Origin: an uncultured Clostridia bacterium
Lineage (GTDB): Bacteria > Bacillota > Clostridia > Lachnospirales > CAMVHY01
NCBI GenBank assembly: GCA_946415665.1
Contig: CAMKTI010000001.1
Location: 1 to 43,943 of the forward strand
Reading direction: 5' to 3'
Length of the DNA stretch: 43,943 bases
The notes under the pieces were generated by a model. That model saw only the letters and a program-made list of their open reading frames with translations. It did not search any database and was not told the DNA's origin. Positions 23,264-43,893 of the stretch are shown here, piece by piece. The translations under genes and the position numbers were made by a program. Each line of letters starts with the position of its first letter. The first letter of the stretch is position 1.

Positions 23264-23296
23264 TAATTAGAAATGATCGTGATATTTAGCGGCGAG

Positions 23297-23704
23297 CTAT
23301 TTCTTCACCTTATTAAGGCGGGAAATGAACGTTGCCCGCTTTACACCGATGACCTTGGCGATGGCTTCATCGAAGAGGCCCTCATGACGGATGTTACTAA
23401 TCTAGGGGTAGCCTCGAGCATCAACTGGGACAGGCGGGAAAAGAGCTCGTCCAGCGGGGAGCAGACGTCGCCGTCGCAGAGCCAGAACTTGTTTTTCGGG
23501 CAGACAGACGCACTTGCCGTGTGCCTGCTGGCGCTTACGGAAGACGTCATAGTAGCGGATGTGGTCGCGGTGGTATTTTTCCGAGACCTCGATCCATTGG
23601 TGAGTGGACTTGATGTAGATGCGGAACGGATTAACTTGTTTTTGGATATGGATTTCCTCGTCTCTACATGCGTCTCTTTGGGCAGTTTCAATACCATTTT
23701 TCAT
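23297..23704 (-). pseudogene. ICE/conjugative-transposon-type sigma-70-family regulator, frameshifted and internally deleted
   Basis: Three minus-strand frames together give MKNG..FRIYIKSTHQWIEVSEKYHRDHIRYYDVFRKRQQAHGKCVC / PKNKFWLCDGD..LDELFSRLSQ / ..IRHEGLFDEAIAKVIGVKRATFISRLNKVKK*. From memory this resembles small sigma-like proteins of Clostridia mobile elements (..RQQAHG.C.CPK...W.CDGDC.. with a C-terminal HTH). Confidence 0.55.
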
Positions 23705-23846
23705 TATTATGACAGCAATGGCTTACATGAAAATATTGTAATTACGGAGTTTTTGCAATATAATATATCTTAATGGGATTTGTGGAATAGGCTCAAACAG
23801 CTCACTTGTGTGCAAATGAGGGCCAATCGGGGGAAAAGCTGTGACA

Positions 23847-23975
23847 ATGAATAACTATCCGCGTCTATGCGGAGGAACCCTCTTCATCTAGTGTTGCAGG
23901 CCATTCGTCAGCGAGTGCGTGCCAGAAAACATTACAATGGTGAAAGTGACGGTCTCTTAGATCCATAGGTCCTGA
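23847..23975 (+). pseudogene. small upstream ORF (43 codons, two in-frame TAG), function unknown
   Basis: Reads MNNYPRLCGGTLFI*CCRPFVSECVPENITMVKVTVS*IHRS. Its TGA overlaps the ATG of the next gene (TGATG at 23973-23977), which suggests former translational coupling. In-frame TAG at 23889-23891 and 23958-23960. Confidence 0.3.
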
Positions 23976-24595
23976 TGGAACTGATTAAAGTTATCAATCC
24001 TGATTATCAAAAGGTGGACCTCAATGCGCTTAAAACAAAAGCAAACGATTATAAGTTCTGCAAGATTTCTGGTGATGCCTACCTTCCGTTTGGCGACATG
24101 CAGGAGATTCGCTTTTTCAGCGAACGAGTGAGAAACAACTACAGGGCAGCGTTAAATGACATGATCGGCTTCGTGAATGACTTCCTTGATCTCGGAAAGG
24201 CCGTAAGCAAGGCGGTGCAGCTGGCAAGAGAACTCATCGACTTGATTCAGCGGGATGAGTCGGTTGCCATGTCTGAGGAGTTCTTTATTAGATCCGATGG
24301 TCAGAGAATAAAAAAGACCGCGCTTGGTGGCCTGGATGAGGTGTACCTGCCCGCATTCCTGCTTGGTATATGGCACTATGCAGTTGTGAACAGAAAAGAT
24401 AACACCGTGGGCCAAGATACCTATAACACGTGGTGTCCGCCAGTAGGTGGGGATCCACGGGTGTACTCGGCTCGCATGGACAAAGGCATCCTTGATGGGC
24501 TTTCTGTCTATTATGTTAATACGGAAGACACCCCACATTTTGAGGTGGAATACGCAGATCATACCGAAGCCGAGATAGTAGATCCCATCCCGTAG
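23975..24595 (+). CDS. hypothetical protein, 206 aa; the only long open frame left in the island
   Basis: Uninterrupted ORF, mostly helical-looking (..RFFSERVRNNYRAALNDMIGFVNDFLDLGKAVSKAVQLARELIDLIQ..). The frame continues for 37 more sense codons after TAG 24593-24595 (..NPFVFNFTQNGNNNTQIGHVEHYH..) up to TGA 24707-24709, so even this ORF may be truncated. Confidence 0.55.
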   Translation: MELIKVINPDYQKVDLNALKTKANDYKFCKISGDAYLPFGDMQEIRFFSERVRNNYRAALNDMIGFVNDFLDLGKAVSKAVQLARELIDLIQRDESVAMSEEFFIRSDGQRIKKTALGGLDEVYLPAFLLGIWHYAVVNRKDNTVGQDTYNTWCPPVGGDPRVYSARMDKGILDGLSVYYVNTEDTPHFEVEYADHTEAEIVDPIP

Positions 24596-24713
24596 ACGAT
24601 GCAGCAAATAGCGAACAATCCGTTTGTGTTCAATTTCACGCAGAACGGAAACAACAATACCCAGATTGGGCATGTTGAGCATTACCATGCTGGAAAGAAG
24701 GAGGACTGATCCA

Positions 24714-41421: not shown

Positions 41422-41471
41422 CAGTTGTCACCATCCTTTAATAAGCTGATTTGCCACTTCTCGATGAGCTG

Positions 41472-42781
41472 TTACTGCAACCGTTCTGTATCCTCTGGTG
41501 TCGGGTTGTGATAGATAGCTGTAGTGGACAGGTTTTTATGTCTCATAAGCGTTTTCACATCGAAATTGGGTAGATGCAGAACATTTGACAGATATATGGC
41601 GCATCCGTGCCTCAGTCCGTGATTAAGGTTGTCCTCGCGGACACCTTCATCGCCAGCAAATTCAGCTTTTCTGAATATCACCCGAAGGTTCTTATTCCAC
41701 ATGTTTTCTGAAAGCGGCCTGCCGAGCGTGTTCAGGAATACATAATAATTGTGCCTGATATTGGAATTTCCGAAAGGAACGGAATCTGCCGTGGCAAAGG
41801 TATCCCTGCGTTCCATGTATCGCTTATTATCATTGCCATGTGCTATATTGATGTATTCCAGCAATTCCATGGCAAGGTCTTCACCGTCTGGTATCCGATG
41901 CCCTTAGGGGTGTAGTCAGGGTCCTTGTAAGTATCAGCGAAAGTGGCATTCATTGCAGATTTGGTGTTCTGTTCCTTCGTATCTGAGAGACGATTACGAA
42001 GTTCAAGCCTGTACTAAACGGTGAAATCCTTGTTTTCCCTGGATTTGATGTCTTTTAAAGTCAAGCCGAACACCTCTCCAATACAAAAACCATGTTCAAA
42101 CAGAAGGCGACATATGATGCGGTCTCTCAGTGGAGTAGCAGTGTCATCTGTTGCCTTCAGAAGAGCCTTGTATTCTTCGATATTTACATAAGCTGGGACA
42201 TAGTCCGCCCTTTTCGGTGTCTTGACAGACACATCGTATAACTGGATTGTTTTGGCTCCGTCTAATTCGGGCATGATTATGGTCTTGAAGCTCTTGCTTT
42301 TAGAGAGCAGGATATGTTTATCGTAGCCGAGATACTCAACATACTTCCTTGCGACCTTGATATAGGATGATACGGTTTCATTCTTCCTCTTGGTTGTCAG
42401 TTCTGTATTATAAAGCAAGCCCTCTCAGGAAATGCCCTTCAGAAAGTCTATAAAGCCAGTGGCTTCCTTCTGGGTTATGTCCTGTAAACGGATGCCGTAT
42501 ATGTCGAGATATGCATACAGGAACTTCAATGCGGTTGTGGCGAGGAATACATAGTTCTGGAACTGACCAGTCATGCCGCCGAAGTTCAGGAAACGAATAG
42601 CGTCTTCAATCGGCTGCATCCTGCTGTCATAAAGCATAATCATGTCCGTGCCGTTGTCACTAGCCGTTGCATATGAGTTCACCTGTATAAGCTTGGTATC
42701 GACCAGGCTGTTCTGCCCGTCATAAGTTTGCATCTCATGACAAGTGCCAGCCGAATTCTGTTTTTCAATTATTCTGTACAT
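41472..42781 (-). pseudogene. tyrosine recombinase A (short, TnpA-of-Tn554-like)
   Basis: ORFs 42425..42781 and 42014..42418 share a frame and are joined through TGA 42425-42427. It carries the Arg box ..PLRDRIICRLLFEHGFCIGEVFGLTLKDI... TAG 42014-42016 and a shift near 41880 follow. The C-terminus is ..NHGLRHGCAIYL..LMRHKNLSTTAIYHNP.. (H-x-x-R and catalytic Tyr). Confidence 0.75.
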
Positions 42782-42980
42782 ACTGGTATCTGCTACTTGA
42801 AATATGTTGGATTTCGAGCTATAATTTAGAAGAAATCAGGATTACTGATACCTTAATTATATAGTCGGATTGCCGAAAAATCAAGAGTATGAAGCTGTCT
42901 AAGGTTGTCCAGGTCGGATTTCTGTATAAAACAGCCCTAAAACCCCGTATTTATCAGGGAAAGTGAGTATTTAGACAATG

Positions 42981-43883
42981 GGCGGCTTACCTATACTCTT
43001 CGACACTGAAATCGCAACATACATATGGATTCGGTCAAAGAATAAGTGACATGAAAGAAAAGGTAAAATCTAATTTATTGATGCGTCAAACATCTGCCAT
43101 AAACTGAGAAAAGCTTTCGGTAAGAAGAAAAATGAAATTTCTCCAGAAGATCGAATTACCATAACGAAACTGTATGCCGATTTTGAAGAGAGCGATCTGA
43201 GCTGAATTTTGCGTAATGAAGCTTTCATGTACAGAGAATATGCAATCATTCAACCTCTTTAAAGAAGCTATACAGTAACGGAAGAGCGTATTCAGTATAT
43301 GCTTCAAAAAGTCAATGAATTGCAGGATGCGGGGAATTGTCTGGTAAGGAGCAGAAAAAACTCGAGGACTTCCTCAACAGCAAACCGTTTTATGATTCGA
43401 TTCTCACAGTTTTATTTGATTGAGGCTGTTTCATCTAAACGTTACGCGTTAGAAAAGAGCTTTTCGCCTATTCTAACATCTGCTTTATCTGTTATAACCA
43501 CAGACAAAAAACTTATTGCCAAAATAGCGTATGGCATGTCTGTTATGGATAAAGATGCCGAAATACAGAGGAATAAAAAAGGAAATATCATTTATGACAA
43601 AGACTCGAAAGATACTGAATTTGTCGGATTTGAAGAGGATATTGCAGAATACATGCGACGAGAGGTTCTTCCGTATGTCCCTGATGCCAAGGCCTTTTTT
43701 GAAGAAAACTTAGGTGCAAAAAAGCCAGTTATAAAAACCGAAGCTAAGATTTCTTTCACTCGAACTTTCTACAAATATCAGGTACTTACAGCAAGTGAAA
43801 AATTGGAGAATAGGTTTGTCGAACTCGAAGAAGAGGTGACAAGTATCGTTCAGCGTTATTTAGCTAGCGGAGGTAAAGTATGA
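42981..43883 (+). pseudogene. hsdM: HsdM-type methyltransferase, C-terminal ~300 codons (continuation of the outer gene at 27981-29169)
   Basis: A single frame reads GGLPILFDTEIATYIWIRSKNK*HERKGKI*FIDASNICHKLRKAFGKKKNEISPEDRITITKLYADFEESDLS*ILRNEAFMYREYAIIQPL*RS..DKDAEIQRNKKGNIIYDKDSKDTEFV..REVLPYVPDA..FTRTFYKY... In-frame TGA 43047, TAA 43071, TGA 43203 and TAA 43260, with no frameshift. From memory it is colinear with the C-terminal region of long HsdM proteins (..LFYNTGI.TYIW....K....KGKVQLIDAS..). Confidence 0.7.
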
Positions 43884-43893
43884 AAAACACTAG

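Follow-up and report, generated by a model that had tools for sequence, protein, structure and literature searches.

The 20.6 kb island at positions 23264-43893 of contig CAMKTI010000001.1, from an uncultured Clostridia bacterium (assembly GCA_946415665.1), is best explained as a dead horizontal import that is decaying neutrally under AT-biased mutation, a reading to which we attach a probability of roughly 0.82. The window analyzed here is the whole of that contig, complete at 43,943 bp. The island is nested, with an outer Type I restriction-modification (RM) type locus made up of g1, g2, an AAA_13/PrrC-like ATPase gene, and an hsdM of the 700-aa type (hsdM_A), and, inserted in the latter, a 13.8 kb inner element (29171-43002) that brings its own Type I RM genes (hsdR, hsdM_B, and hsdS_B), an RHH-type open reading frame (ORF), a PIF1-like helicase gene, a DUF6262 gene, and three tyrosine-recombinase genes (recA, recB, and recC). 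All genes of the inner element are decayed except the 67-aa RHH ORF. The decay pattern is real, well documented, and ordinary, and it belongs to a phenomenon that is already known.

Thirteen island genes were codon-aligned to intact relatives found in metagenomes and in Clostridia of the rumen and gut (labeled L001, L039, L112, and so on), and the window sequence was added to these alignments; relatives were admitted only if free of internal stops, and their zero stops are thus not independent evidence. The alignments contained 42 stops at homologous codon positions, distributed as three in g1, five in g2, one in the AAA_13 gene, seven in hsdM_A, three in hsdR, three in hsdM_B, four in hsdS_B, three in the helicase gene, one in the DUF6262 gene, four in recC, five in recB, and three in recA, with the ten stops of g1, hsdS_B, and the helicase gene resting on poorer alignments. 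Small insertions and deletions were counted as approximately 18 frameshifting and approximately 8 in-frame events in the ten well-aligned genes, or approximately 18-20 frameshifting events across all 13. Since each stop sits where the intact relatives encode an amino acid, the decay is real. These counts agree with a first-pass annotation of the same DNA, made from the sequence alone, which had given at least 35 in-frame stops and about 19 frameshifts or deletions.

Most of the individual lesions named in that annotation were recovered as well, including the four stops in the stretch of recB that keeps its frame from 41284 to 39488 (40750, 40447, 40258, and 39949, with no frameshift between them), four in the C-terminal part of the outer methyltransferase (43047, 43071, 43203, and 43260), and five in the gene at 24714, which is g2 (24729, 24756, 24786, 24948, and 25165). 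The loss of a glycine codon that turns GFTGTP into GFT*TP is a GGA>TGA change at 30424, a glutamate codon has become TAA at 32821, changes from glutamine codons to TAG and TAA are present at many sites in the codon alignments, and the Walker A motif of the helicase reads ITVGAGTGKS in place of ITGGAGTGKS. Two items did not hold. An excisionase with two TGG>TGA changes was not recognized, the sole change from tryptophan to TGA being in recC at 37192 and the remnant at 23.3-23.7 kb having TAG stops and no Pfam match; and the tryptophan-to-stop changes described in insertion sequence (IS) copy 3 relative to copy 1 were not reproduced, the new stops in the overlapping part of the two copies having arisen from TCG and AAA codons.

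Selective constraint on the island genes has been lost. Changes specific to the window were distributed over codon positions 1, 2, and 3 as 258, 206, and 267, compared with 475, 281, and 950 on the branches of the intact relatives, and this near-even spread points to neutral evolution. A neutral simulation that used the measured rates and the reconstructed ancestral codons, and that, like the spectrum described below, omitted g1, hsdS_B, and the helicase gene (54-78% nucleotide identity, few relatives), produced 40 ± 6 stops in 5165 codons, where 32 were observed; rescaling the expectation to the substitution rate at codon positions 1 and 2 (approximately 5%) brought it to approximately 27-31. 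The simulation also predicted which residues would be lost (glutamine 13.2, glutamate 4.5, tyrosine 3.9, tryptophan 3.4, arginine 1.8, and glycine 0.8), and the ancestral residues observed under the stops followed closely (13, 5, 3, 3, 3, and 2, respectively). Nonsense changes made up 3.8-4.2% of neutral mutations, so that 32 stops at a share of approximately 4% correspond to approximately 800 substitutions in 15.5 kb, or approximately 5%, in agreement with the independent estimate from positions 1 and 2; conversely, a divergence of approximately 5% over 15.5 kb predicts approximately 30-40 stops. In stop number, ancestral residue, and codon position, the island behaved as expected of neutral decay.

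The first-pass annotation had regarded the dominance of nonsense codons, many at conserved tryptophan, glutamine, glycine, and glutamate positions, as a distinguishing feature of this decay, and this interpretation is not supported, given that the neutral simulation accounts for the stops in both number and ancestral residue. The stops fall on glutamine, glutamate, tryptophan, tyrosine, arginine, and glycine codons because those codons lie one step from TAA, TAG, or TGA, and the residue pattern is thereby largely set by the genetic code. The direction of the changes is set in a similar manner: even under a flat spectrum, 48% of the single changes that create a stop in these genes are GC>AT and 9% are AT>GC, a surplus that arises because stop codons are AT-rich, and the expected GC>AT share of stop-creating changes (85.5%) was close to the share observed (approximately 87%). 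Across seven genes of the inner element, the rates at positions 1 and 2 were uniform at 3.3-4.8%, so that these genes decayed together, as one block.

The concentration of stops at conserved glutamine, tryptophan, and glycine codons has a superficial resemblance to a reassigned genetic code, in the island or in its original owner, under which TGA would be read as tryptophan or glycine, or TAG and TAA as glutamine, and the genes would still be translated. The correspondence between stops and residues is mixed, though, with TAG aligned to glutamine, glutamate, tryptophan, and tyrosine, TAA to glutamine, glutamate, tyrosine, and serine, and TGA to glycine, arginine, tryptophan, and lysine, and on this ground the reassignment was rejected. 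The even spread of substitutions over codon positions also counts against it, as do the approximately 18-20 frameshifts, a 233-bp deletion, and the gene-splitting 13.8 kb insertion that accompany the stops; the intact relatives use the standard code, although they were picked for having no internal stop. The chance that these genes are recoded is therefore negligible.

To obtain the substitution spectrum, a change was assigned to the window branch when up to six intact relatives agreed and the window differed, and the same rule was applied to each relative to provide control branches. The main spectrum was taken without g2, which has approximately 70% identity to its relatives and whose ratio of 0.79 mostly reflects old divergence. 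The window branch comprised 629 changes, of which 429 were GC>AT and 156 were AT>GC, corresponding to a per-site ratio of 3.6 (4.3 at codon positions 1 and 2), while the control branches comprised 840 GC>AT and 621 AT>GC changes, with per-site ratios of 1.9 over all codon positions and 0.98 at the third. The GC>AT excess of the window relative to the controls was significant (Fisher p = 1.7e-11), and was significant also within position classes. The equilibrium GC content implied by the window ratios is 0.22 (0.19 at positions 1 and 2), which matches the GC content at third codon positions (GC3) of the intact host genes on the same contig (22.1%). Erosion of the island's GC content is slight so far, with values at the three codon positions of 47.5, 31.2, and 52.0% against 50.1, 32.2, and 52.2% in the nearest intact relatives, a fall of approximately 1-2.5 points. 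The earlier proposal that a GC-richer import is eroding under the AT-biased mutation pressure of its host is thus upheld by the polarized ratios and by the nearness of the equilibrium to host GC3.

That proposal had also named a mechanism, deamination and/or unrepaired oxidized guanine, of which the AT-biased part is sustained and the oxidized-guanine part is not. Transitions constituted 82% of the GC>AT changes of the window, and the signature of 8-oxoguanine was not enriched, G:C>T:A changes being 18% of the window's GC>AT changes and 20% of those on the branches of the intact relatives (p = 0.65). The mutation spectrum is an ordinary one, rich in transitions and biased toward AT. A stronger version of the mechanism would have the host lacking ung, mutY, and mutM, with the stops as the footprint of an abnormally strong regime of deamination or 8-oxoguanine. 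In its favor are the per-site ratio of 3.6-4.3 and the equilibrium of approximately 20% GC, the very AT-rich host (GC3 of 22%, and contigs of its relatives at 27% GC), the low identity of the host alanyl-tRNA synthetase (AlaRS) to that of named taxa (at most 50%), which suggests fast evolution, and the fact that five of the six stops in hsdR and hsdM_B are G>T changes. The unchanged share of G:C>T:A changes speaks against such a regime, and the G>T stops in hsdR and hsdM_B are explained by the abundance of GAA, GAG, and GGA codons, with the simulation reproducing the glutamate and glycine counts. A three- to fourfold AT bias is, moreover, reportedly within the range of repair-proficient bacteria, as Hershberg and Petrov are said to have described in 2010. 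Loss of repair is accordingly an unlikely source of the stops.

Another possibility is that the foreign DNA was hypermutated in a targeted manner, by a cytosine deaminase or a process resembling fungal repeat-induced point mutation (RIP), acting as an import defense or as a toxin, in place of slow drift. The island resembles the products of fungal RIP or deaminase hypermutation in its many changes from glutamine and tryptophan codons to stops via C>T and G>A, with glutamine-to-stop the commonest nonsense class and with C>T and G>A transitions amounting to 56% of all window-specific changes. There is, in addition, a weak island-wide excess of C>T changes after a 5' T, in particular in TCC (52 of 394, or 13%, compared with approximately 8% overall), with no other context effect. 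Unlike fungal RIP, the host is bacterial, and the changes have neither a CpA context nor strand clustering. Tests of the neighboring base were not significant for C>T changes (chi-square p = 0.06 on the 5' side and 0.41 on the 3' side), CpG was not favored, and CpA, the RIP context, was the least mutated of the 3' contexts. Strand asymmetry was absent, with C>T at 8.10% and G>A at 8.07% in the plus orientation. Approximately a quarter of the changes were AT>GC, further transversions were present in normal proportions, the mix of transitions and transversions among GC>AT changes was that of normal lineages, and the density of decay was uniform across the inner element. Targeted hypermutation is therefore highly improbable.

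The ratio of nonsense to frameshift lesions was approximately 1.8:1, and substitutions outnumbered indels by approximately 27:1 overall (approximately 26 indels against approximately 700-800 neutral substitutions) and by approximately 35:1 in the inner element. In mutation-accumulation lines of Vibrio, the corresponding ratio is 4-6:1, with indels mainly in simple repeats (PMC5854121). The island has 1.07 homopolymers of at least six bases per kb and the host part 8.26, an eightfold difference, and the shortage of frameshifts is plausibly compositional, imported coding DNA of this kind offering few homopolymer runs. The host's own dead IS copies are likewise poor in indels, with approximately 42 mismatches per gap. 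One might propose on this basis a host regime in which strongly AT-biased substitution is combined with an exceptionally low rate of small indels, and in which pseudogenes persist as full-length, stop-riddled fossils; such a regime is doubtful, and would, if true, be an exception to the deletional bias that is thought to keep bacterial genomes compact. The statement that the decay is not driven by indels also misdescribes the island's history, in that the clearest primary hits are structural, namely the insertion in hsdM_A, the 233-bp deletion in hsdR, and the truncation by an IS.

A technical cause for the shortage of frameshifts, such as homopolymer or frameshift polishing or a consensus of mixed strains, would be in keeping with a substitution-to-indel ratio above the mutation-accumulation benchmarks and with a metagenome-type contig that has repeats at its ends. 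Yet approximately 18 frameshifts remain, including 1-bp indels outside homopolymers that a frame-restoring polisher would remove, the dead IS copies have an equally high ratio, and the scarcity of homopolymers in the island provides a biological reason. The alaS gene of the host, compared with its strain relatives, has 159 mismatches and no gap, as is expected of a functional gene. The host ORFs before the island are long and intact, comprising shikimate-pathway genes, AlaRS (879 aa), a LysM protein, and a Cna_B adhesin (807 aa), and intact AlaRS and Cna_B genes on the same contig argue against random errors in the assembly. We consider an artifact of this kind quite improbable.

Several considerations weigh against neutral decay of a dead import as set out above. 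Polarization relied on parsimony singletons, with relatives at 12-30% divergence, as opposed to likelihood reconstruction, and the window singletons include substitutions that were fixed while the genes were functional, chiefly at position 3. Relaxed selection gives a GC>AT excess to the pseudogenes of any bacterium, and the match between the implied equilibrium and host GC3 is therefore suggestive of decay in the present host but no proof of it. The substitution-to-indel ratio is several-fold above the 4-6:1 of the Vibrio lines, for which low repeat content is a plausible, if qualitative, explanation. Finally, the difference in stops between the AAA_13 gene and g2 may reflect different ages, with the AAA_13 gene functional for longer, or may be just a matter of small numbers.

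The donors of the island were probably Clostridia of the gut or rumen with intermediate GC content, and the recipient is an uncultured, very AT-rich member of the Clostridia that is ridden with IS copies. Its composition is foreign to its surroundings, with approximately 30% GC in about the first 23 kb of the window and 41-48% GC from 23.27 kb to 43.89 kb (a mean of 43.8% over the 20.6 kb island), and its relatives reside in other taxa, the closest being metagenome-assembled genomes of Butyrivibrio, Oscillospiraceae, and Solobacterium, together with gut metagenomes, at 80-88% nucleotide identity. Megablast searches with both halves of the window returned no near-identical plasmid copies, a scan of viral contigs with recombinase B returned no match, and no tRNA genes were found in the window.

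The AlaRS of the recipient reaches 95-97% identity solely with proteins from short metagenome contigs and at most 50% with named organisms (such as Epulopiscium, Caloramator, and Defluviitalea), and the GC content of host DNA outside ORFs is 27.5%. The contigs of its relatives (L115-L117) are approximately 27% GC, and L117 has additional alaS fragments; the alaS genes of the strain relatives have 94% nucleotide identity to that of the window, and synteny is nevertheless gone directly outside the gene. The host lineage is thus a deep-branching one within the Clostridia, and the lost synteny, the alaS fragments in L117, and the confinement of close relatives to short contigs suggest that its genome is IS-ridden and rearranging. 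A host spectrum from the alaS of three strain relatives was discarded, as these relatives form one tight clade and leave the window singletons unpolarized. The European Nucleotide Archive assembly accessions of the host relatives L116 and L117 (ERZ27280277 and ERZ27280283) lie 6-27 apart from one another and from those of the intact-element relatives L028 and L110 (ERZ27280295 and ERZ27280304), and all have contig names of the form k141_. The contigs of these four assemblies may come from one study, and a co-occurrence of recipient and possible donors would be a lead. The GC skew of the host part changes from approximately +0.27 to approximately -0.4 near 9000-9800, where gene orientation turns from plus to minus, and this flip is probably that of a purine-rich coding strand as opposed to a replication landmark.

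Gut metagenomes contain many intact relatives of the outer locus, with nucleotide identities that reach 85-88%. Its hsdM_A is divided into an N-terminal part at 27981-29170 (plus strand; Pfam HsdM_N), which contains stops at 28011, 28819, and 28951 and frameshifts of 14, 1, and 2 bp, and a C-terminal part at 43003-43883 (plus strand), which contains the four stops listed above, a 33-bp deletion, and three small frameshifts; two of the changes in hsdM_A are from tryptophan to TAG. The gene is colinear with that of L039 up to L039 position 8236 and resumes at window position 43003, so that the split falls between 29170 and 43003. Across the target site, the uninterrupted hsdM of L039 reads ...LFYNTGIATYIW. 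The window and seven divergent relatives share one point of insertion, within the hsdM motif LF(Y/F)|(N/G)T(G/S)I, and the ends of the element are conserved; besides the window, six relatives have the target motif directly at the recombinase-A end of the element and four have it at the other end, and truncated N6_Mtase genes stand beside recombinase A in the relatives too. Since the same codon boundary is used in eight divergent hsdM genes, the inner element appears to be a site-specific mobile element that targets hsdM, with a tyrosine-recombinase triplet and a replacement Type I RM system as its predicted cargo.

Integrative and conjugative elements (ICEs) of streptococci integrate into hsdM via a serine-integrase triplet (PMC4701971). 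The inner element shares with these ICEs the three recombinase genes in a row and the site-specific disruption of a Type I hsdM. It differs in that its three recombinases are large tyrosine recombinases (Phage_integrase; 456, 781, and 637 aa in the order recA, recB, recC) in place of serine integrases, in that a conjugation module was not observed along its 13.8 kb, and in that it carries a replacement Type I RM system as cargo. In the literature, we found no description of a tyrosine-triplet counterpart of the hsdM-targeting serine triplets. Intact relatives of the element were found in Butyrivibrio sp. WCD3002 and several metagenome contigs, and the element is colinear with L001, L112, L109-L111, and L113 at 82-88% nucleotide identity. 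Related elements were located at approximately 7710-19770 in L001 and approximately 8410-20928 in L112, as well as in L109-L111, L113, and L027, often with a PIF1-like helicase gene.

Within the inner element, the first three genes are on the plus strand. The hsdR pseudogene (29377-32040) contains three stops, two from GGA>TGA and one from CAR>TAG, along with a 1-bp deletion, the 233-bp deletion, and an in-frame deletion of 30 bp; the hsdM_B pseudogene (32059-33662) has three GAR>TAR stops and an 11-bp insertion near its end; and the hsdS_B pseudogene (33666-34904) has approximately four stops, with indel calls that are unreliable because of the variable target-recognition domains. The RHH-type ORF of 67 aa that follows (34914-35117, plus strand) has no stop, has 89-92% nucleotide identity to L112, L113, L003, and L001, and has a relative in L027/L111 that is labeled RHH_1 on the strength of a weak match. 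It is the island's sole gene with neither a stop nor a frameshift, and each of the nine changes specific to the window is GC>AT; at approximately two stops per kb, an ORF of 200 bp would stay intact by chance approximately two times in three.

The remaining genes of the inner element are on the minus strand. The PIF1-like helicase pseudogene (35157-36699; Pfam PIF1/AAA_30), aligned by tblastn to an intact 515-aa relative, carries the Walker A substitution of glycine by valine, approximately three stops, and a 1-bp insertion. It is followed by the small DUF6262/HTH gene (36738-37193), which has a single stop, CAG>TAG at 36869. The recC pseudogene (37187-39087), whose intact L001 protein is 637 aa, has four stops and a 10-bp deletion; the recB pseudogene (39071-41421), whose intact relatives are 781 aa, has five stops, two 1-bp deletions, and insertions of 1 and 9 bp; and the recA pseudogene (41424-42781), whose intact relatives are 456 aa, has three stops and a 10-bp deletion.

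On the outer side, the locus begins next to a small regulator-like remnant (23290-23725, minus strand), which was recognized from its six-frame translation and from tblastx matches to genes that precede this locus in L067, L096, and L100; it has two internal TAG stops and a probable frameshift, and a Pfam search with it gave no match. The g1 pseudogene (23738-24706, plus strand), the first gene of the outer locus, is without functional assignment and has three stops and several small indels; its alignment is weak, at approximately 63% nucleotide identity, and by tblastn it has 48% identity with an intact L052 protein of 322 aa. The g2 pseudogene (24672-25356, plus strand), also without functional assignment, has its five stops within 0.44 kb and a 1-bp insertion. 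The AAA_13 (PrrC/RloC-like ATPase) pseudogene (25616-27904, plus strand) has three 1-bp deletions and one stop, TCA>TAA at 25634 (codon 7); three of its ORF pieces have AAA_13 Pfam matches, and its nucleotide identity to intact 764-aa relatives is 87.6%. Stop density is uneven among these genes, with one stop in 2.3 kb of the AAA_13 gene, five in 0.7 kb of g2, and seven in 2.1 kb of hsdM_A. Both hsdM_A and g2 have higher substitution rates and stop densities than the inner genes, and their relatives are also more distant. Beyond the end of the flanking IS, the outer locus lacks its hsdS and hsdR.

Both edges of the island adjoin IS copies. Copy 3, a decayed sequence of the DDE_Tnp_1 type (22772-23268, plus strand), adjoins the left edge and has 82.5% identity to copy 1 (154-650), with 85 mismatches and two gaps in 498 bp; the Pfam match of copy 1 is DDE_Tnp_1. 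At the right edge, the outer RM locus is cut short by the end of copy 4 (43891-43943, minus strand), which is inverted with respect to copy 3 (inverted repeats I5 and I6) and in which the contig stops. In total, the window has four DDE_Tnp_1 IS copies (1-652, 17699-17899, 22772-23268, and 43891-43943), which have 77-87% mutual identity and are all apparently dead; the two at the edges of the island are inverted relative to each other, and the contig begins and ends inside an IS copy.

The stop and indel counts, the spectrum, the simulation, and the insertion junction are direct results, whereas the order of events and the decay of the island in its present host are inferred. The outer Type I RM/PrrC-like locus would have been inactivated first, by structural events: the element with three tyrosine recombinases would have inserted site-specifically into the outer hsdM, and the outer hsdS and hsdR would have been lost beyond the flanking IS. 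The inner element would then have lost its function as well, the 233-bp deletion in hsdR being one possible cause. Since then the whole 20.6 kb has been unconstrained for approximately 4-5% substitutions per site. Stops have arisen passively during this time, as approximately 4% of neutral substitutions, and are passengers of the island's age.

Amelioration of horizontally acquired DNA was reportedly described by Lawrence and Ochman in 1997, and a universal AT bias of bacterial mutation by Hershberg and Petrov, reportedly, in 2010. As in amelioration, a foreign island is drifting toward the mutational equilibrium of its recipient, here 19-22% GC and equal to host GC3. The present case departs from the usual one in that the island is fully pseudogenized and all codon positions ameliorate, and the process has barely begun, at a GC3 of 52% against 22% in the host. 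Mycobacterium leprae and Sodalis provide cases of neutral pseudogene decay in reductive evolution. Neutral decay of pseudogenes in host-restricted bacteria has also been described in the Burkholderia symbionts of leaf nodules (PMC6054270), and the island resembles their decay in that stops and small indels occur together, deletions exceed insertions, and dead IS copies and rearrangements are found in the same genome. Unlike in these symbionts, what decays here is an imported mobile island, the host genes on the contig are intact, and the substitution-to-indel ratio is high, at approximately 27-35:1.

The decay pattern thus serves as a worked example of how pseudogenes decay neutrally and how AT-biased mutation alters imported DNA, and as a caution that G/C>A/T stops at conserved tryptophan, glutamine, glutamate, and glycine positions are forced by the genetic code and are no evidence of a special mutational mechanism. 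The island provides an internal clock, with approximately 4-5% neutral divergence since inactivation, and a direct estimate of the mutational equilibrium (approximately 20% GC) of an uncultured AT-rich lineage of gut Clostridia. To researchers of mobile elements and defense systems, the family of hsdM-targeting elements with a tyrosine-recombinase triplet may be of more use than the decay pattern itself.

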